56,224 nucleotides of DNA from a virus (Duplodnaviria; Caudoviricetes), in the IMG/VR virus record IMGVR_UViG_3300025131_000046, positions 1 through 56,224 of that record; one strand, 5' to 3'. A program made the position numbers and the translations under genes. Shown here piece after piece: positions 13,569-36,273 of this stretch. Below the pieces are notes generated by a model. The model did not search any database and had not been told where the DNA came from. It was given only the letters and a program-made list of their open reading frames with translations. The number at the start of each line of letters is the position of its first letter. Position 1 is the first letter of the stretch.

Positions 13569-13934
13569 ATGGCACGAGCAACTACATTCTACGGTGAAAT
13601 CTTTGAAGACGGGACTGCTCGTGTCCATGGTCTATTAACCGATGGTGATCTAGATAACACCCCTCTGTTAACCACTGACTTTGGATCAATGGATTACTGG
13701 GTAATCGATTTAGCTACCGACACTACAGTTGTTACTGAAACATCTATAACTGTGGCTAATGTATTGAGTAATACCCTCAATAGCCACGGTAATAACTTTG
13801 ATTTTACTATTCCTAGTACATCATTTGCGGCTGGCACCAGAAAATTTGAACTGCATATCCGTTTTACACTGGGTTCAGGAGACATTGGTCAAGCTTTGAT
13901 TATTCTGGACGCAACTAAAATAACGGCTGCATAA
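13569..13934 (+). CDS. hypothetical (Ig-like) virion protein
   Basis: 121-aa beta-rich ORF, coupled to the HNH gene. Confidence 0.65.
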   Translation: MARATTFYGEIFEDGTARVHGLLTDGDLDNTPLLTTDFGSMDYWVIDLATDTTVVTETSITVANVLSNTLNSHGNNFDFTIPSTSFAAGTRKFELHIRFTLGSGDIGQALIILDATKITAA

Positions 13935-14425
13935 TGCCTAATACGCCCAAGCGGTATTCTCCGTCAAACATGGAAAAACCAACTCGAAAGCCTTGGCAGG
14001 ACAACCATGCTAAGGGTTCTCGACATGAACGTGGGTATGATTATGCTTGGGTTAAATTACGTAACGCATACATAAAGAAGAACCCTCTGTGTGAACCATG
14101 TCAACGATCTGATCATGTCACGCCTGCTACACAGGTAGACCACATTGTTTCCTTCAGAGAAAAACAAGACATACTAAGATTACATCCTTGTAATCTTCAA
14201 TCTATTTGTGACGTGTGTCACACAATAAAAACATCTAATCCTTTTAGGCATTACCAACTAGCCATACCAGAATTTGGTGTAACTAGTTTTCAGCTTTCTC
14301 AGATTCAACAGATTGTAAAGTGTGATCCCTTGATTCGTCGGTATAAATCTAGGGATGTTCGTGACTTGTTAGAGTGGGCAACTCAAATAGCAGGTAGTTT
14401 TGTACTTATACCCGTTGAGAGATAA
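13934..14425 (+). CDS. HNH endonuclease (HK97 gp74-like terminase cofactor)
   Basis: RGYD..W.KLR, PLCEPC, VDHI, NLQSICDVCH motifs; directly upstream of terS. Confidence 0.9.
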   Translation: MPNTPKRYSPSNMEKPTRKPWQDNHAKGSRHERGYDYAWVKLRNAYIKKNPLCEPCQRSDHVTPATQVDHIVSFREKQDILRLHPCNLQSICDVCHTIKTSNPFRHYQLAIPEFGVTSFQLSQIQQIVKCDPLIRRYKSRDVRDLLEWATQIAGSFVLIPVER

Positions 14426-19228: not shown

Positions 19229-20611
19229 ATGGATCGTCTGAAAGAACTTCAGGAACTGCGGCTGAAGCTTCACAATGAGATTAAGGCTCACGCCGATAAG
19301 CTTCCGGCTGACGGTACTGAATCTCCTGAATGGAAGGAAACCTGGGATCAACTGAATAAAGCCTATGACGAAAATATGGTTTCGTTGGATGCTGAAACCA
19401 AGAAGATTGCTGAGTCTCAGGCTGTTCAAAACCGGCTGTCTGCAATTGATACGCAGCTTTCCAGCATGCCGAGGTTTGAGCTTCAGAACTTCAACCAGCC
19501 GCCTCAGAATCCTCTGCCTAATAGTAACCAGCCAGTAACGTTTGAGCAGCAACAGTTGCTGGCTCTCCAAGGCTGGATGATGAACTCTTCATCCGAACAC
19601 AGTCATCGGATTGAGGATCGACATCGTCAAGCTGCTCTTGCTACTGGTAACCGTCTTGACAGTAAAGATTTTGTGTTTGAGTTGAGCACTACTCAAGCCT
19701 TTAATCAATATCGTAGGGATCGTCTCCAGAATGCTCTAACAGGTGGTCAAGGTACAAAAGGTGGATTCATCACTGGTGAATCTTTCGTAGCATCTGTTGA
19801 ACGAGCCATGCTTGATTTTTCTGGTGTTGCTCAAGCTGCCGATATTATTCGTACGAATAACGGTGAACCTATTCACTACCCAACTGTGGATGACACTAGC
19901 AATACTGGTCGATTGGTTGGTGACGGTTCTGCTGTTACAGCAACTGCTGAACCTACTTTTGGTGATGCAATTCTGTCGGCATATACCTTTACCTCTGATG
20001 AGATTAAGGTTGCACGGGCATTGCTGGAAGACTCTATGCTCGATCTGGGTAACTTGGTTGGCTCGCTCTTGGGTGAGCGGCTTGGTCGTATCCAGAATAC
20101 CAACTACACTACGGGTACTGGTGCTGGTGTTGCTCCTCGTGGTGTTGTCACGGCTGCAACGGCTGGTGTAACGGCGGCTTCTACATCTGCCATCGTTTTT
20201 GACGAAGTTATTGATCTGGAGCACTCTCTCAATCCTTCTCGTCGTGTTCCTGGTCAGGGAACAGGCTACATGTTCAACGATGCTATTCTGCAAACTCTCC
20301 GTAAGCTCAAGAATGGTATGGGTGACTATCTGTGGCAATCAGGTGCTAACTCTGGTGCTCCAGATACACTCAACACTTGGCCTTACTGGATTAACCAAGC
20401 CATGGCGTCTACGATTGCAACCACCAACATTACGATGTTGTTTGGTGCATTCCGTAACTATAAAATTCGTCAAGTTCGTTCCATTCGTTTCCAACGTCTA
20501 GTTGAGAGGCATGCTGAAAATGATCAGGATGCTTTCTTGGCCTTTGTTCGTGGTGATGGTAATCTCGTAGATGCTGGGGATGGTGTAGTTCGTAAACTGA
20601 CCCAAGCATAA
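19229..20611 (+). CDS. HK97-fold major capsid protein with coiled-coil delta domain
   Basis: N-terminal coiled coil, GGF, LLEDS..DL, GTG...PRG, LRKLK...G.YLWQ, FG.F..Y.I, R.DG motifs. Confidence 0.95.
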   Translation: MDRLKELQELRLKLHNEIKAHADKLPADGTESPEWKETWDQLNKAYDENMVSLDAETKKIAESQAVQNRLSAIDTQLSSMPRFELQNFNQPPQNPLPNSNQPVTFEQQQLLALQGWMMNSSSEHSHRIEDRHRQAALATGNRLDSKDFVFELSTTQAFNQYRRDRLQNALTGGQGTKGGFITGESFVASVERAMLDFSGVAQAADIIRTNNGEPIHYPTVDDTSNTGRLVGDGSAVTATAEPTFGDAILSAYTFTSDEIKVARALLEDSMLDLGNLVGSLLGERLGRIQNTNYTTGTGAGVAPRGVVTAATAGVTAASTSAIVFDEVIDLEHSLNPSRRVPGQGTGYMFNDAILQTLRKLKNGMGDYLWQSGANSGAPDTLNTWPYWINQAMASTIATTNITMLFGAFRNYKIRQVRSIRFQRLVERHAENDQDAFLAFVRGDGNLVDAGDGVVRKLTQA

Positions 20612-32257: not shown

Positions 32258-33766
32258 CTAAGTTACATAAACCAGTTCATTCTTAGCTCTTGTGATAGCT
32301 ACATATATAAGGTTCTTTTCTTGTTCTTGCTGCCATGCTTTAGTTGCCATTGGATGAGGCATAGGAGCATCCTTGTGCTTGAGAATAAAGACCCTATCTG
32401 ACTCAAGACCTTTTGCCTTATGCACACTGCTGAGAAGCACACCGTTCTTAACAGTGTCGGTAAAAACTTCTTCAATCTCCTTGATTGTGCCTTCGACTGT
32501 CTCCCTGTTGGCAGCAAAGATCAAAATACAGTCGTGACGATCTTGGAGATTAATTAGTCGATTTTCGTTGGGGCTTTTACGGGCACGTTCCTTCGTCTCT
32601 TCTTTCGCTAACCACGTACCAATTTTCTCGACAAGGTCAGTCGTGTCCTCTGCATTAAGTTTTTTGATTGTAGAAATCAGACCTTGTCCGATATCGCGTC
32701 CCTGGATATTTGCTGCTCGACCTTCACGCAGAAACTTAAAGCACTCACTCACAAGTGGAGCGTTCACGCGACACAAAATCATATCGCCAGCTTCAGCGTC
32801 TTCTCTGTAGCTCTTTTGTCCAGAGAAAGGCATGGAGCGTACAAGCCCGTCTGGGTTGTTCTCGTGAGCTTCAAACTCGGGTACATACTTTTGAGCCTCT
32901 TGCACAATAGCCCTACCACAGCGACGTGTAACCGTCAGAGGCAGCACTTGACAACCTCTCGTGGTTTCGGATAGACGATCATACATGTTGTCCATCGATT
33001 CAGCGTCCGCTCCTGCAAAACCATAAATTGCCTGATTCCGATCACCCACCAGAATCAATCGGCTACCTGCTTTCAATGCCAATTCTTGTTGGCACCTATT
33101 TAAGTCCTGGCTCTCGTCAACAATAAGTAATGCATGCTTAAAGACTGGCAAATTTAGAATAATTGGTAACCAAATCATGTCGTTGAAATCAATCTCTCGG
33201 TCTTCCTCAACCTCCTTGCATGCTTCCAATACTTGCGGAACCAATTCAAATACTTCGTCGGAACAACCATTGGTGTCAACGTCATAGTGCGAAGCCATCC
33301 CCGCCAATTCTTCTGTGTCATTTCCGCTGATCAGTGTCATCTTGCATAAACCAACTAACTTTTCTGTAATTCGAGCAATATTTGCTTTGGTCTTGTCTTG
33401 CCGTAATTCTTTAAATTCCATGCCGTACAAGCTACAGATCACATTCATTACTCGCCATTTATTGACTTTGCAGTAACCAACAGATTGCTTAATTGATCGG
33501 AATCCCATCGAGTGCAGCGTCATCGCTTCGCATCCTGCGGGAACCTGTTGCTGTAGTACAGTGGCAATCGATTTATTGAAAGCGACAGCAGCAATCTTCT
33601 TGGCTTTAACTGACAGTGCCATGGTTTCCCAAATCTCAGCCTGTTGAGGAGAGGGAGTAAAAATACTTGCTTTCCCCTTCATGACTTTGAGACCTTCAAC
33701 CATTGACGATGTCTTGCCGGTTCCAGCCAGTGCTTTAACGATCAAATGCTGTGGTTGACTGCTCAT
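32258..33766 (-). CDS. UvrD/Rep-like SF1 helicase
   Basis: ALAGTGKT, VAFNK, TLHS, VDESQD, VGD..QAIYGFAGA, RC, HKAKGLE, YVAITRAK; start placed at MSSQ, downstream of the promoter. Confidence 0.93.
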   Translation of the reverse strand: MSSQPQHLIVKALAGTGKTSSMVEGLKVMKGKASIFTPSPQQAEIWETMALSVKAKKIAAVAFNKSIATVLQQQVPAGCEAMTLHSMGFRSIKQSVGYCKVNKWRVMNVICSLYGMEFKELRQDKTKANIARITEKLVGLCKMTLISGNDTEELAGMASHYDVDTNGCSDEVFELVPQVLEACKEVEEDREIDFNDMIWLPIILNLPVFKHALLIVDESQDLNRCQQELALKAGSRLILVGDRNQAIYGFAGADAESMDNMYDRLSETTRGCQVLPLTVTRRCGRAIVQEAQKYVPEFEAHENNPDGLVRSMPFSGQKSYREDAEAGDMILCRVNAPLVSECFKFLREGRAANIQGRDIGQGLISTIKKLNAEDTTDLVEKIGTWLAKEETKERARKSPNENRLINLQDRHDCILIFAANRETVEGTIKEIEEVFTDTVKNGVLLSSVHKAKGLESDRVFILKHKDAPMPHPMATKAWQQEQEKNLIYVAITRAKNELVYVT

Positions 33767-33824
33767 GCTTTTCGTCTCTCTTCCAAAGTATTTTGTTGTT
33801 TCGTTCCTGCCTGCCATGGCTTCC

Positions 33825-33852
33825 ATTATACCAAACTATACAACGTTGGCAA
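33825..33852 (-). promoter_or_regulatory. sigma70-type promoter (leftward)
   Basis: TTGCCA-16 nt-TATAAT with TGn. Confidence 0.65.
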
Positions 33853-33939
33853 TCGCAAAGTTGTAAAAAAGTGAGAATCGGGTGCTCAAAATCGTCGTAA
33901 ACTATTTCTACCAAAAGACATAAAACTTCATAACTGGCC

Positions 33940-33968
33940 TTGACCCCATCCTCCAAACCTGCTACAAT
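33940..33968 (+). promoter_or_regulatory. sigma70-type promoter driving array 1-csrA-tas-array 2
   Basis: TTGACC-17 nt-TACAAT with TGn extended -10; start site falls just before the first repeat. Confidence 0.8.
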
Positions 33969-33985
33969 GCCCGCCATGAAAGGCA

Positions 33986-34182
33986 GAACGCAGCCATACA
34001 CGCTGATGCAGACAACAACAGGTAGGCAGAACGCAGCCATTGATTTAACCCAAGAACAGCGAACGTAAACGTAGTCTTTCGCTTCGAGCAACCCAAATGG
34101 CAAGAACGCAGCCAATTTTGAAGGTACTTGTACAATCGAAGAACGTAGCCAAGTGAAAAGATAATCCAGAGATTCCAAACGT
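33986..34182 (+). ncRNA. TIGR-like tandem dual-spacer guide RNA array 1 (5 units)
   Basis: Edge repeats (G/A)AACGYAGYCA at 33986, 34029, 34067, 34104, 34141 and 34177 (last degenerate); interiors parse as 8 nt + loop + 8 nt. Confidence 0.8.
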
Positions 34183-34202
34183 TGTTTAATCAGGAGGATT
34201 GT

Positions 34203-34379
34203 ATGCTTGTGCTAACTCGCAAACTAAACGAGGGCATTCTGATCGGGGATGACATTTACATTGTTGTAACAAATCTTTCCTCATCAAAAGTCAACTTAGG
34301 TATCAACGCACCAAATGATGTACCTATTTTACGGGCAGAATTGGTAGAGCAGCAAGAATCTGATAATCACGAAGATTAA
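34203..34379 (+). CDS. csrA: carbon storage regulator CsrA-like RNA-binding protein
   Basis: MLVLTRK..E.I.IGDDI.I.V.......V.LGI.AP.DVPILR.EL; AGGAGG RBS. Confidence 0.93.
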   Translation: MLVLTRKLNEGILIGDDIYIVVTNLSSSKVNLGINAPNDVPILRAELVEQQESDNHED

Positions 34380-34398
34380 CGAAAGGTCCAGTAGTAAT

Positions 34399-35313
34399 AT
34401 GTCCGAGTCCAAAACGCAAACGCTCGAAGCTGTTGATTATGCGGCTGTTAACTGGGAAGTTATTGACAAACTAACCAAAGAAATGATGGCGTCTGCTCTA
34501 ACTCTTACTCAGAGAGAAGCCCGACATTTAGTAGGCATGTATTACTCAGTACAAAACTTCCGTATTCATGCTGGGAACCACACCTCAGTAAAAACAGGGG
34601 CAGATGCTAATCCTGTCCTGGCTTGGGTGTTTTCTAACTGTCGCCTGATTGAGGAGAATATTAAACGGGCACTTGGCAGGTTTGCAGCAGAATTTACAGT
34701 TGGTCAATGGTTACAGAGTATCTGCGGCATCGGTCCTGTTATCTCGGCTGGCTTCATTGCTCACCTTGATGTTCGAGACCGACCTACCTATGGTCACTTT
34801 CACTCGTTTGCTGGTCTCAGTCCCCATATCAAATGGGAGAAAGGACAAAAAAGACCATTCAACGCTGCTCTTAAAGTCCTCTGTTACAAAGTAGGGGAGA
34901 GCTTTGTCAAAGTCCAGAACAACAAAAAGGACTACTACGGTAAGCTGTATGCTGTACACAAGGCTGGCCTAGTTCTGCGTAATGAAAGGGGTGACTTTGC
35001 TGAAGACTCTGCTCGAATTCTAACCGAAAAGAATTGGGGTAAAGACACTGATGCTTACGGGCATTATTCGGGTGGTAGACTACCGCCCGCTCATGTCCAT
35101 GCTCGTGCTCGTAGATATGTAGCCAAGCTACTTTTGTCACATCTTCATACCGTGATGTATGAAGACTATTACAAAACCAAAGCTCCTATTCCTTACCCAT
35201 TTTCTAAACATGCAAAAGAAGCTGCTATGCCTGATCATCGTCACTTGCTAGAAGTCCCTAACTGGCCGATGTTATCCTTTGGAAAAGACTTAGCCTGCCT
35301 GCTTGATTCCTAG
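34399..35313 (+). CDS. TasA-like Nop/IS110-related RNA-binding protein (no nuclease domain)
   Basis: N-terminal helical region, LQSICGIGPVISAG (IS110/Nop helix-hairpin), FHSFAGL.P, H.HARARRY..KL.LSHL; no N-terminal DEDD RuvC; flanked by dual-spacer arrays. Confidence 0.85.
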   Translation: MSESKTQTLEAVDYAAVNWEVIDKLTKEMMASALTLTQREARHLVGMYYSVQNFRIHAGNHTSVKTGADANPVLAWVFSNCRLIEENIKRALGRFAAEFTVGQWLQSICGIGPVISAGFIAHLDVRDRPTYGHFHSFAGLSPHIKWEKGQKRPFNAALKVLCYKVGESFVKVQNNKKDYYGKLYAVHKAGLVLRNERGDFAEDSARILTEKNWGKDTDAYGHYSGGRLPPAHVHARARRYVAKLLLSHLHTVMYEDYYKTKAPIPYPFSKHAKEAAMPDHRHLLEVPNWPMLSFGKDLACLLDS

Positions 35314-35685
35314 CCATGGTCGCAGATGATGATAATCTAAATAAGGCGAACGTAGTCAACAGGAGCAATAACCCAAGTAGAATGAACGTAGTCACACAAC
35401 GCTATAAACCATGCCACACGACCGCAGTTAGTGATTGAGATACTTCGCATACCCCGAGAACGTAGTCAAGGATTACGATACTTCGCACGCCCCGAGAACG
35501 TAGTTGGACTTTACAACAACTCAAATAGTAGGAACGTAGTCAGTGATTACGATACTTCGCATGCCCCGAGAACGTAGTCAATAATCCAGACATACACGTC
35601 TTCAGAACGTAGTCACAACCAGCAATTCCATACGTGTACTTTGAACGTAGTTAAAGACCAACAATAGCCCAGATGCTTTGAACGT
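35311..35685 (+). ncRNA. TIGR-like tandem dual-spacer guide RNA array 2 (10 units)
   Basis: GAACGTAGTCA-type repeats at 35348, 35384, 35420, 35458, 35496, 35532, 35570, 35605, 35643, 35680 (period 35-38), plus a half repeat TAGCCA overlapping the tas stop codon. Confidence 0.88.
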
Positions 35686-35700
35686 CTTATTGGAGTATGT

Positions 35701-36273
35701 ATGACAATCTATCGACGGATTGTGGATAAGTCTATTTCTCCCGAATTCAGAAAGCTACAGCGGCAATACAAAGACTGTAAAAAATGTGCCTTGTGTAAAA
35801 CTCGTAACCTTGTAATACATTATAGGGGCAATATACCCTGTGATATTGTTTTCCTTGGTGAAGCTCCAGGAGAGTCTGAAGACATTCTGGGTATTCCATT
35901 CATCGGACCAGCAGGTAAAAAACTTGATGAGGCATTAACTGAATTGCTGGCGGACATAACATTCCGGTTTGCAATTACCAACATTGTGTCTTGCATCCCT
36001 CTAGACGAGGACAATCGGATCAGATCACCAACAGCAAAAGAAGCAAAGGCGTGCCGCCCTCGACTCAATCGATTCTTAGCTCTTGCAAAGCCTAAGTTGA
36101 TTGTTACAATGGGCAAAATTGCTCAATCCTTTCTTCCAGAACAGTACAAGGATTATGCAGTGGGCGTTAAGCATCCTAGTGCTATTCTGCGTGCTCACAG
36201 TGCTCGTCAGCCACTAGAATTGCAACGTTTTGTACTGACAGTAAAATCAGCAATTGAGAAAAGAGTAGTATGA
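35701..36273 (+). CDS. uracil-DNA glycosylase family 4 (Fe-S)
   Basis: CKKCALC, GEAPG..E...G.PFIGPAG, TN.V.C.P, HPSAILR. Confidence 0.9.
   Translation: MTIYRRIVDKSISPEFRKLQRQYKDCKKCALCKTRNLVIHYRGNIPCDIVFLGEAPGESEDILGIPFIGPAGKKLDEALTELLADITFRFAITNIVSCIPLDEDNRIRSPTAKEAKACRPRLNRFLALAKPKLIVTMGKIAQSFLPEQYKDYAVGVKHPSAILRAHSARQPLELQRFVLTVKSAIEKRVV

Follow-up and report, generated by a model that had tools for sequence, protein, structure and literature searches.

The locus considered here raises the question of whether a 304-aa gene set between two repeat arrays in a tailed marine phage is part of an RNA-guided system, and what the guides of such a system would recognize. The locus is located in a window of 56,224 bases, the whole stretch of DNA that was analysed, whose source record is a complete 56-kb phage genome, in agreement with an initial reading of the system as phage-encoded. 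The TIGR-Tas family of RNA-guided systems was described in 2025 (Faure et al., PMC12045711), and 20,096 tas loci along with 4,126 dual-repeat arrays have since been catalogued. A preliminary description made from the DNA letters termed the locus TIGR-Tas-like. On the evidence set out below, the locus is assigned with a probability of ~0.88 to the dual-repeat TIGR-TasA systems.

Organization of the locus

The promoter, five-unit array, csrA, 304-aa gene and ten-unit array itemized in the preliminary description were all found at 33940-35700 on the plus strand (Table 1). A scan of 2.8 kb detected eight promoter-like sites compared to 4.1 expected, and the promoter of array 1 therefore is rated as a consensus match only. 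The csrA product also matches PHROG 9500 'CsrA-like regulator' (6.6e-15), and the gene is preceded by AGGAGG that is positioned 6 nt past the last, truncated edge of array 1. The variant in run X4 possesses about 342 extra letters at 34335-34340, toward the 3′ end of csrA. No terminator was found after array 1 or array 2, each of which abuts the ribosome-binding site of the next gene, nor specifically between array 2 and the uracil-DNA-glycosylase-family gene. The latter probably is co-transcribed with array 2 and is not a TIGR component. It shares the downstream operon with genes for a RuvC-like resolvase, an exonuclease, a Sak4-like annealase, a DNA polymerase and a primase. There was no Rfam match at E ≤ 1 within 33700-35900 and no tRNA in the window. 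An antisense ORF of 147 aa across array 1 (33735-34178) is not considered to be a gene, given that the array units have lengths that are not multiples of three. Contigs from four other marine runs hold the locus with arrays that differ by a single base (35342 T>A); in runs X5, X6 and X9 contigs leave parts of the stretch uncovered.

Table 1. Coordinates of the TIGR-TasA locus and flanking features in the 56,224-base window.
Feature	Position	Strand	Basis
Divergent promoter-like site of helicase gene	33852-33825	-	Consensus scan
Sigma-70-like promoter, TTGACC-17-TG-TACAAT	33940..33968	+	10/12 hexamer matches with TG; 5′ of array 1
TIGR array 1, 5 units plus 3′-truncated edge	33986..34186	+	Edge motif, unit parse
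csrA, 58 aa	34203..34379	+	Pfam CsrA, 1.4e-20, 73.4 bits, cut-off 27
tasA, 304 aa	34399..35313	+	NF052498, profile search, alignment of 38 members
TIGR array 2, 10 units	35311..35687	+	Edge motif, unit parse
Near-twin units 35420, 35458 and 35532	35420..35569	+	Family D2, 81-94% identity over 47 nt
Uracil-DNA-glycosylase-family gene	35701..36273	+	Directly 3′ of array 2

The 304-aa protein is assigned by homology to the TIGR-Tas family

Comparison with HMMs had been suggested as a check of the relationship to TIGR-Tas proteins. The 304-aa protein, TasA, matched the NCBIfam model NF052498 'TIGR-Tas system RNA-guided endonuclease' with 157.8 bits (cut-off 100) in an alignment of residues 42-253 with model positions 2-214 of 215, and the model was matched by all 38 aligned family members. 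As judged by sequence homology, the protein thus belongs to the TIGR-Tas family proper. The relationship recognized in the preliminary description stands, but the qualifier 'like' does not, and full membership therefore removes most of the novelty that had been assumed: TIGR-Tas systems are a known kind and this TasA is an ordinary member of the family. Pfam, PHROGs and automatic cluster names instead read 'transposase IS116/IS110/IS902', as would be anticipated if the gene were a fragment of an IS110-family transposase to which the repeats are unconnected. However, the score with the IS110 transposase model NF033542 was 26.8 bits, for which the cut-off is 140, in an alignment across model positions 203-262 of 343 only, compared to the score with NF052498 noted above. 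Moreover, the protein has no DEDD domain and periodic arrays adjoin the gene in 72 of 80 related viral loci. The probability of a transposase fragment is next to negligible.

A profile built from TasA and 37 relatives was searched against solved structures and found four distinct sequences: TasR (9mty_A, 1.6e-21), TasH (21kl_A, 2.4e-9), IS621 (8wt6_A, 2e-6) and ISCro4 (8.8e-6). These matches point to the Nop/IS110-type homology that had been proposed. The alignments with TasR and TasH span Nop and C-terminal parts only (residues 117-264 and 270-323 of 9mty, and 112-240 of TasH), and the N-terminal nuclease domains of the two solved proteins have no counterpart in the TasA profile alignments. 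About 41 residues stand before the shared domain in TasA, and no HNH, RuvC or DEDD family was matched at E ≤ 1 when all 38 members were scanned, in keeping with the earlier view of the protein as nuclease-less and devoid of a DEDD RuvC domain. The GIGP and FAGL.P motifs remarked on previously are present at residues 110-113 and 137-142 (FAGLSP), respectively, and Nop-type RNA-binding homology appears to extend to about residue 253. The RNA-binding domain is shared with archaeal and eukaryotic Nop5 and Nop56/58 of box C/D RNPs. The link between TasA and Nop5 is structural and is drawn from the literature; the Pfam Nop family had no sequence-level match in any of the 38 members.

In dual-repeat systems, tigRNA processing is carried out by a Tyr/His dyad in a loop near the C terminus, namely Y289 and H296 in SpTasH. 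Residue Y266 of TasA is tyrosine in 35 of the 38 members and H280 is histidine in 37. Both are located in a loop which the alignment pairs with the C-terminal loop of TaTasR, and the two residues are a candidate Tyr/His pair of a guide-processing loop.

Modeling of TasA as a homodimer gave a score of 0.62, compared to 0.34 for the best of three controls, with an interface at residues 25-91, at least 76% of contacts shared between runs and pLDDT values of at least 76. Among proteins solved as one-chain pairs, 20 of 30 attained the mark applied, as did one of 23 solved as single chains. TasA is predicted to be a symmetric dimer formed via predicted helices in residues 25-91. As Tas dimers have been solved, the result may reflect likeness to these structures.

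The arrays comprise dual-spacer units with variable loops

The window contains 13 copies of the motif GAACGYAGYYR, with 12 at 33986-35653 that are all on the plus strand. Chance expectation is 0.38 copies, the largest number in shuffled sequences was three, and 13 copies were reached in none of 100 shuffles. Matches to the edge motif with up to two mismatches number 52 against 39.9 expected; 14 are within the two arrays and the others revealed no further array. Each unit is parsed as an 11-nt edge (GAACGYAGYCA), eight variable nucleotides, a loop of the form RA...CA, and eight more variable nucleotides. Information content across the 15 units upholds this parse, which had been put forward in the preliminary description: each of the 11 edge positions carries 1.1-2.0 bits compared to 0.08-0.57 bits for the eight positions of the first spacer and 0.01-0.71 bits for those of the second. 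The loop starts with G or A in 13 of the 15 units followed by A in 13, and ends with C in 13 followed by A in 14. The edge itself begins with GA and finishes with CA, and the loops share these start and end motifs, which are the box D and box C equivalents, respectively. Five loops begin with a base other than G and open with AA, TA or CA.

Loops are 5-16 nt and units 35-43 nt long. The period of mostly 35-38 nt given previously applies to most units, but not to one unit of 43 nt in array 1. The spacings in array 1 are 43, 38, 37, 37 and 36 nt, with units that start at 33986, 34029, 34067, 34104 and 34141, and the five full edges are followed by a 3′-truncated edge at 34177-34186. Unit 34029 is irregular: its loop is short and partly lost, and the edge that follows carries an internal duplication of 6 nt. 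Array 2 opens with a 5′-truncated edge (TAGCCA, 35311-35316) that overlaps the tasA stop codon, continues with nine full edges at 35348, 35384, 35420, 35458, 35496, 35532, 35570, 35605 and 35643 (spacings 36, 36, 38, 38, 36, 38, 35 and 38 nt), and closes with a 3′-truncated edge at 35680-35687, 13 nt upstream of the ATG of the next gene. The near-twin units 35420, 35458 and 35532 have the 11-nt loop GATACTTCGCA in common and differ at one to three positions in each spacer, and unit 35496 that lies between them is unrelated. This set is rare and looks like the outcome of unit duplication followed by point change.

Only five of the 15 units have the modal length. In 59 related arrays, by comparison, the fraction of units with the modal length had a median of 1.0 and was above 0.33 in every case, although the k-mer method used for the related arrays is biased toward regular units. 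The units classed as irregular are 33986, 34029, 34104, 35570 and 35605. Some of the units may be dead in view of their irregular lengths, non-GA loops and the damage to unit 34029.

Comparison with related TIGR-Tas loci

An alignment-based scan of viral contigs identified at least 586 relatives, unlike a scan with the single TasA protein which gave no match. Arrays of ~36 nt periodicity adjoin tas downstream in 50, on both sides in 15 and upstream in seven of the 72 related loci that have them. Units in two relatives (L007 and L003) consist of the edge GAGCGAGCCA, 8 nt, the loop GAGAGTACCA and 8 nt, for a total of 36 nt, and two others (L055 and L005) have 11-nt edges as in the phage locus. 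No spacers are common to the phage locus and the 80 related loci, and neighboring genes are not shared save for a helicase in one relative (L036). Among 50,697 GenBank phage records searched with blastn and tblastn there was no relative at 1e-5; at E ≤ 10 there were 13 weak partial matches, for example to IS110-type transposases, that covered ≤37% of the query.

The closest described systems are those of FpTasA of Flavonifractor plautii and of MbTasA (PMC12045711; Xu et al., 2026, 10.64898/2026.09.09.750476) which, like the phage protein, are solo Nop-type Tas proteins without a nuclease. TasA binds 36-nt tigRNAs (PMC12045711) and MbTasA exerts guide-dependent repression of reporters and of one chromosomal gene (10.64898/2026.09.09.750476). 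The phage locus has in common with dual-repeat TIGR-TasA systems the edge, spacer A, loop, spacer B arrays by the gene, here on both sides, as well as short motifs with which both repeats start and end, and truncated edges (5′ in the first edge of array 2 and 3′ in the last edge of both arrays). The conserved C-terminal Tyr/His pair is a candidate for a further likeness. In contrast, the 11-nt edge is combined with spacers of 8+8 nt instead of the commoner 9+9, GA/AA replaces UG as the box D equivalent, the arrays have no terminator, and csrA occupies the interval between array 1 and tasA. Furthermore, the unit of published dual-repeat arrays is reported to be fixed at 36 nt, a length that brings the cut site close enough to the Tyr/His dyad, whereas the units and loops here vary in length as detailed above.

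TaTasR (9mty) is the best solved relative, and the alignment reaches its PPxW motif via the C-terminal loop. TaTasR dimerizes by a coiled coil, and the modeled TasA dimer uses residues 25-91. The RuvC domain of TaTasR (residues 1-116) has no counterpart in TasA, and TaTasR combines UG and CCA boxes with 9+9 spacers in place of 8+8 spacers. SpTasH of Salicola phage CGphi29 (solved as 9w03, 21kl and others) also is phage-borne and has a homologous Nop part. The variable sequence of its tigRNA likewise totals 16 nt, and its guides are processed by a Tyr/His loop of which Y266 and H280 are the candidate counterparts. However, SpTasH cuts DNA with an N-terminal HNH nuclease. The bridge-RNA recombinases IS110 and IS621 share the RNA-binding domain (Pfam Transposase_20) and a tandem-guide logic with the phage system, which lacks their DEDD catalytic domain, single bridge RNA and transposon ends. 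CRISPR-Cas arrays have one repeat of 25-36 nt and single spacers of similar size, in contrast to the two repeats of 11 and 5-16 nt and 8-nt spacers here, and there was no Cas annotation among 59 long ORFs of the window compared with PHROGs.

Candidate targets of the guides

The target rule suggested previously, spacer A plus the reverse complement of spacer B, appears to fit that derived from published Tas cut sites, which have 8-nt 3′ overhangs and follow the C-5 rule. The phage genome was searched with the arrays masked for both spacer arrangements, gaps of 0-2 nt and up to three mismatches alongside shuffled controls. No adjacent spacer pair matched at ≤1 mismatch, and there was no excess over the controls; with gaps of 0-2 nt and ≤2 mismatches, counts were no higher than in 20 letter-shuffled controls. 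The sole match with one mismatch (20528-20544, major head gene) requires an unexplained 1-nt gap at a base that fits neither spacer. These results weigh against a working TIGR-TasA system with guides directed at the phage's own DNA, as a timing switch or an aid to replication or recombination. The position of the locus at the head of an operon of replication and recombination genes and the possible role of TasA in DNA bending during recombination (PMC12045711) would suit such a system, whose probability is judged to be very small. As there is no target in the phage genome, we infer that the TIGR-TasA system is directed at DNA of the host or of competing elements rather than of the phage.

The target of unit 35420 matched 16 of 16 positions in flgL (codons V-I-D-R-G) of a marine Rhodopirellula genome, G002. 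This match was equalled in 57 of 200,000 shuffles and the G+C content of G002 is 10 points above that of the phage. The flgL site is a statistically unusual, testable candidate target, found for a system that has csrA next to it. A flagellar gene was matched by one of the 15 guides, in flgL of this one genome, with no corroboration elsewhere. Across 23 Rhodopirellula genomes the unit 35420 target gave the one exact match and five with one mismatch: two radical-SAM genes, two ORFs without a Pfam match, and one site outside ORFs of ≥100 aa. No flagellar family was among the four ORFs. The unit 35532 target had no exact and two one-mismatch matches, in unrelated genes, in the same 23 genomes. An exact match for unit 35420 was found nowhere but in G002 in a phylum sample of 401 genomes. 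When the 15 guides were compared with flgL orthologues at 30 family-level loci, there was no match with ≤3 mismatches at the homologous site in gene orientation, and 14 of 18 genus-level loci aligned at the target site had 2-9 differences. No other guide matched at ≤1 mismatch in 248 kb of G002, including three contigs of the flagellin family, and 764 kb of other loci provided only two-mismatch matches at about chance level. In viral contigs there were no matches for the unit 35532 target and three for the unit 35384 target, in two distinct sequences with 56-65% G+C that are unrelated to the window. In metagenome contigs the unit 35532 target had 66 matches, none in a flgL-like gene. Five parsed guides of 33-40 nt from L063, a second tas locus with csrA beside it, had no match in 533 kb.

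The absence of a target in the phage genome and of a second spacer match in sampled candidate host DNA, together with heterogeneous unit lengths, non-canonical loops and damaged unit 34029, would be compatible with a decaying relic in which the protein or most units are nonfunctional and the repeats linger only as a leader or spacer within the operon. However, TasA retains all 27 columns that are invariant across the 38-sequence alignment and its reading frame is undisrupted; edges, 8-nt spacing and RA...CA loop ends are maintained in nearly all units; and the locus is almost identical in the four other runs. A relic is accorded a small probability.

Association with csrA

The csrA gene adjoins tas in two of 81 tas loci, the phage locus and L063 in which csrA is directly after tas. 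The 17 other viral csrA loci have no tas or periodic array within 3 kb. Thus, the linkage of csrA and tas is no general association, and joint mention of TIGR-Tas and CsrA was not found in the literature searched. The presence of csrA inside the locus and its placement in L063 nevertheless raise the prospect that the arrays are a decoy or cis-regulatory RNA for CsrA in the manner of CsrB. The GGA core of CsrA sites is absent from the 216 nt of array 1 and occurs four times in the 377 nt of array 2, equivalent to 10.6 per kb against 12.4 per kb across the window, and arrays occur without csrA in 79 of 80 tas loci. The probability of a CsrA sponge is slighter still than that of a self-directed system.

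According to PMC13418256, a guide of the csrA-associated TldR, a nuclease-dead TnpB, represses fliC transcription and CsrA binds the fliC 5′ UTR. TldR there likewise is a nuclease-free, RNA-guided DNA binder encoded beside csrA, although its protein family and guide type are unrelated to TasA and tigRNA. One phage guide matches a flagellar gene, flgL, exactly, although this is a single uncorroborated match. It is conceivable, but rather unlikely, that csrA and tasA form a host-takeover module that silences flagellar genes, with TasA-tigRNA acting on DNA and CsrA on mRNA, in which the near-twin units are guides for flgL alleles and tigRNA processing frees the messages.

Proposed action and implications

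By analogy, TasA most likely is an RNA-guided repressor of 16-bp targets. We infer RNA processing, DNA binding and repression from relatives. One promoter would transcribe the locus as the opening part of the replication and recombination operon of the phage, generating a transcript which, as relatives suggest, would contain 15 guide units. A TasA dimer would grip each unit at the short motifs common to edge and loop, with the starting RA as the box D and the ending CA as the box C equivalent, and the C-terminal loop with Y266 and H280 would cleave inside the edges to yield tigRNAs of about 35-43 nt. The ribonucleoprotein then would open a 16-bp DNA site composed of spacer A and then the reverse complement of spacer B, at which the two 8-nt spacers would pair with opposite strands. 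As it is without a nuclease domain, the complex would remain on the DNA and block transcription, or replication.

If the csrA-tasA module were real, it would be a convergence on the csrA-TldR arrangement of gut bacteria, the near-twin units would be guides against allelic variants of one flgL site, and the match between unit 35420 and flgL would represent the first case of a natural TIGR target deduced from sequence. Processing of tigRNAs also would liberate the csrA and tasA messages and those of the replication genes from a single transcript. As a TIGR-TasA locus, the phage system adds little to the known family. Instead, it is of use for two open questions, namely which targets natural spacers have and in what way arrays change: the complete 56-kb genome allows self-targeting to be assessed, with no self-target found, the embedding of the arrays in a terminator-free operon makes the locus informative, and the variable loop lengths bear on how strict the 36-nt rule is.

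Organization of the locus and its repeat arrays

The record was rated complete, its 56,224 bases representing a whole virus. PHROG scans of 59 long open reading frames revealed the genes of a tailed phage, namely those for small and large terminase, portal, head protease, major head protein, head-tail adaptor and tail proteins, along with phage-encoded helicase, RuvC-like resolvase, exonuclease, Sak4-like annealase, DNA polymerase and primase; no integrase was detected among these 59 frames. An HNH endonuclease gene (13934-14425) is positioned directly 5' of the small terminase gene (PHROG 144, 2.6e-23), a common packaging arrangement that is unrelated to the TIGR locus. The latter is situated between a helicase gene on the minus strand and replication and recombination genes on the plus strand.

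Features of the TIGR locus and flanking genes
Feature	Coordinates	Strand	Remarks
Helicase gene	32258-33826	-	Left neighbour of TIGR locus
Promoter-like site (TTGACC, 17 nt, TG-TACAAT)	33940-33968	+	10/12 hexamer matches
Array 1	33986-34186	+	Repeat units
csrA	34203-34379	+	Pfam CsrA 1.4e-20
tasA (304 aa)	34399-35313	+	
Array 2	35311-35687	+	Repeat units
Uracil-DNA-glycosylase-family gene	Starts 13 nt past array 2	+	

The repeats reported in the preliminary description are real. The window contains 13 copies of the edge motif GAACGYAGYYR, of which 12 are in the arrays, all on the plus strand; 0.38 copies are expected, and none of 100 shuffles attained 13. When up to two mismatches were permitted, 52 matches were recovered in the window against 39.9 expected, with 14 located in the arrays; the remaining matches disclosed no further array in the window. 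Across the 15 units each of the 11 edge positions carries 1.1-2.0 bits, the eight positions of the first variable block 0.08-0.57 bits, and the eight of the last block 0.01-0.71 bits. Loops start with G or A followed by A in 13 of 15 units, and end with C (13/15) and then A (14/15). Array 2 begins with the final six letters of an edge that overlap the tasA stop codon, and both arrays are closed by a truncated edge. Truncated ends are described as typical of TIGR arrays (PMC12045711, section 4). Unusually long loops are present in the first units of the arrays, at 33986-34028 (16 nt) and 35311-35347 (15 nt), and both open with GATG.

The protein is of the TasA type

The 215 positions of the NCBI curated TIGR-Tas model NF052498, which represent solely the shared Nop-type domain under the name 'RNA-guided endonuclease', were matched in their entirety by residues 42-253 of TasA with a score of 157.8 bits (cut-off 100). 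The protein does not qualify as an IS110 transposase, scoring 26.8 bits on the corresponding model when 140 are needed. The only Pfam match was a short Transposase_20 segment (24.5 bits, residues 104-144), and the PHROGs label for the family is 'transposase'. The family is large: a word-indexed search retained 2,895 of 3,794 candidates at E ≤ 0.001, an exhaustive search returned 2,130 cluster representatives at this threshold and 1,150 at E ≤ 1e-30, and viral contigs harbor members at 586 or more places. The atlas neighbours of TasA are 94-95% viral.

In an alignment with 37 relatives that are 43-55% identical, TasA retains all 27 invariant columns, including GIGP at residues 110-113. The profile of these 38 proteins matched four solved sequences: the RuvC-bearing TaTasR (9mty_A; 1.6e-21), the HNH-bearing TasH of a Salicola phage (2.4e-9), IS621 (2e-6) and ISCro4 (8.8e-6). 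The TasR alignment spans its residues 117-264 and 270-323 only, with the N-terminal RuvC domain outside, and that with TasH spans its residues 112-240, with the HNH domain outside. None of the 38 proteins matched nuclease families or Pfam Nop at E ≤ 1. As all 38 match the TIGR-Tas model and none matches a nuclease family, the protein is, as judged from sequence, of the TasA type, and the earlier proposal that it has no nuclease is upheld.

Residues Y266 and H280 are in the C-terminal loop and are conserved in 35 and 37 of the 38 proteins, respectively; this loop in dual-repeat Tas systems is reported to bear a Tyr/His dyad that cuts the precursor. A homodimer model of TasA passed controls, scoring 0.62 where the best control scored 0.34; 20 of 30 solved one-chain pairs attained the score mark, compared with one of 23 single chains. 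Model runs had at least 76% of contacts in common and pLDDT values of at least 76, and the predicted interface is symmetric and involves residues 25-91. Because Tas dimers have been solved already, this outcome denotes likeness rather than an independent result.

Comparison with related loci

In a basic k-mer screen, 72 of 80 related viral loci have periodic arrays of 34-39 nt next to tas, situated downstream in 50, upstream in seven and on both sides in 15; the screen detected none in the other eight. The common unit, exemplified by loci L007 and L003, comprises the edge GAGCGAGCCA, 8 nt, the loop GAGAGTACCA and 8 nt, totaling 36 nt. Edges of 11 nt that are close to those of the window are present in loci L055, L005 and L063. 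The genes that flank tas vary between related loci, as was noted also for tasParB-tasA operons (2025; PMC12045711). Every defining feature of a dual-repeat TIGR-TasA system that can be assessed from sequence is present in the locus, with Y266 and H280 as the putative dyad, which bears out the original interpretation as a TIGR-Tas-type system. The newness assumed for it does not hold, as TIGR-TasA has been described already. The locus does not qualify as CRISPR.

The locus departs from the described TIGR-TasA kind in four respects. First, neither array is followed by a terminator-like site, and on the plus strand the nearest such sites are inside tasA and the glycosylase gene; the last truncated edge is separated from the next ribosome-binding site by 6 nt after array 1 and by 6-7 nt after array 2. 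Second, the units range from 35 to 43 nt because the loops vary from 5 to 16 nt, and only five of 15 have the modal length, whereas the arrays of relatives are mostly regular: the modal share in 59 related arrays has a median of 1.0 and none is ≤ 0.33, in counts restricted to units bounded by an exact 7-mer and therefore biased toward regular arrays. A fixed 36-nt unit is reported to place the cut site at the dyad (10.64898/2026.09.09.750476), and the variable units thus make the locus a test of the fixed-36-nt rule. Third, units 35420, 35458 and 35532, named by start coordinate, are near twins that have a loop of their own in common and differ in few spacer letters. Near twins with ≤ 4 differences per unit account for 18 of 706 units in relatives, in seven of 59 arrays.

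csrA in the tas locus

The fourth departure, the presence of csrA within a tas locus, is rare: the gene adjoins tas in one of 80 other tas loci (L063), and tas was absent within 3 kb from all 17 other viral csrA loci. In L063 (2651-2975; 3876-4205; 56.6% G+C) an array and tasA are followed by an open reading frame of 109 aa with a CsrA domain. Its 11-nt edge GAGCGTAGCCG agrees with the window edge at nine of 11 positions, the loop is 9 nt and the spacers are 8 and 8 nt. A role for the arrays as a CsrA decoy was rejected because GGA is not enriched in them. Phage CsrA shares 44-64% identity with chromosomal CsrA across many phyla, and planctomycetes are named in the titles of ~37 of the 80 best matches.

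The habitat is marine, as nine runs from eight studies, a count that leaves out three possible source runs, are all labelled marine metagenome and contain 26-88% of the words sampled from the locus. Contigs of four of the nine carry the locus nearly unchanged. A 3,934-letter contig of run X4 matches in two pieces that abut at 34335-34340, in the 3' part of csrA, yet are 342 record letters apart, and two contigs of run X6 turn to unlike sequence at 34335-34340. A population variant seems to exist in which ~340 bases are added or substituted at the csrA end. In run X4, GTA is also inserted after 34200, in the stretch that separates the csrA ribosome-binding site from the ATG.

Candidate targets

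Published Tas cut sites have 8-nt 3' overhangs, with cleavage 5' of the base that pairs with spacer position five. The sole arrangement that fits both properties, and the one advanced in the preliminary description, is a target that on one strand would read as spacer A followed by the reverse complement of spacer B. With the arrays masked, no target in adjacent arrangement was found within one mismatch in the phage genome, and looser searches of that genome did not exceed shuffled controls.

As csrA-linked TldR regulators are reported to act on flagellin (PMC13418256), the 15 guides were compared in a pre-set test with nine Flagellin_N loci (30,675 bases) from three Pirellulaceae genomes reached via csrA matches. 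The target of unit 35420 in the inferred arrangement matched at 16 of 16 positions in the marine Rhodopirellula genome G002 (C132:32062-32077). Matches to TIGR02550 (152 bits, cut-off 127.2) and to Pfam Flagellin_N and Flagellin_IN identify the gene as flgL, in which the site covers residues 386-391 with codons V-I-D-R-G. An exact match arose in 57 of 200,000 letter-shuffles and in none of 210 mis-paired spacer combinations. Local searches covered ~1.7 Mb on both strands in total, over which ~0.01 exact matches are expected, which brings the corrected figure closer to 1 in 100. No other guide had a target within one mismatch either in 248 kb of G002 or in any fetched flgL locus, and the twin guides had no flgL match in the genus or in 66 metagenome matches. 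The homologous sites in 14 genus-level orthologues differ at 2-9 positions, and among 401 sampled genomes of the phylum the site is present only in G002. The G+C content of G002 is 54.3% compared to 44.2% for the phage. The flgL match is a lead and not a finding, and is unlikely to denote a genuine target.

The near twins at 35420-35569 differ at codon positions of the flgL site: a GGT/GGC difference is at a third position, and a GAT/ACT difference falls on a residue that is variable (D/Q) among orthologues. Guides directed at different alleles of a single coding site could account for this pattern, as could plain duplication followed by drift.

Implications for function and annotation

By homology with described systems, TasA dimers would bind the units on the transcript and the Tyr/His loop would cut within the edges, after which the ribonucleoprotein would bind a 16-bp site, each of the two spacers pairing with a different strand. 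Guide processing would also split the messages of the operon. A block to transcription would be expected of a TasA protein that lacks a nuclease, and such a block has been demonstrated for MbTasA in reporter assays, at a chromosomal gene and in gel shifts (10.64898/2026.09.09.750476, section 12). TasA proteins that are free of a nuclease would receive an endonuclease annotation from NF052498.
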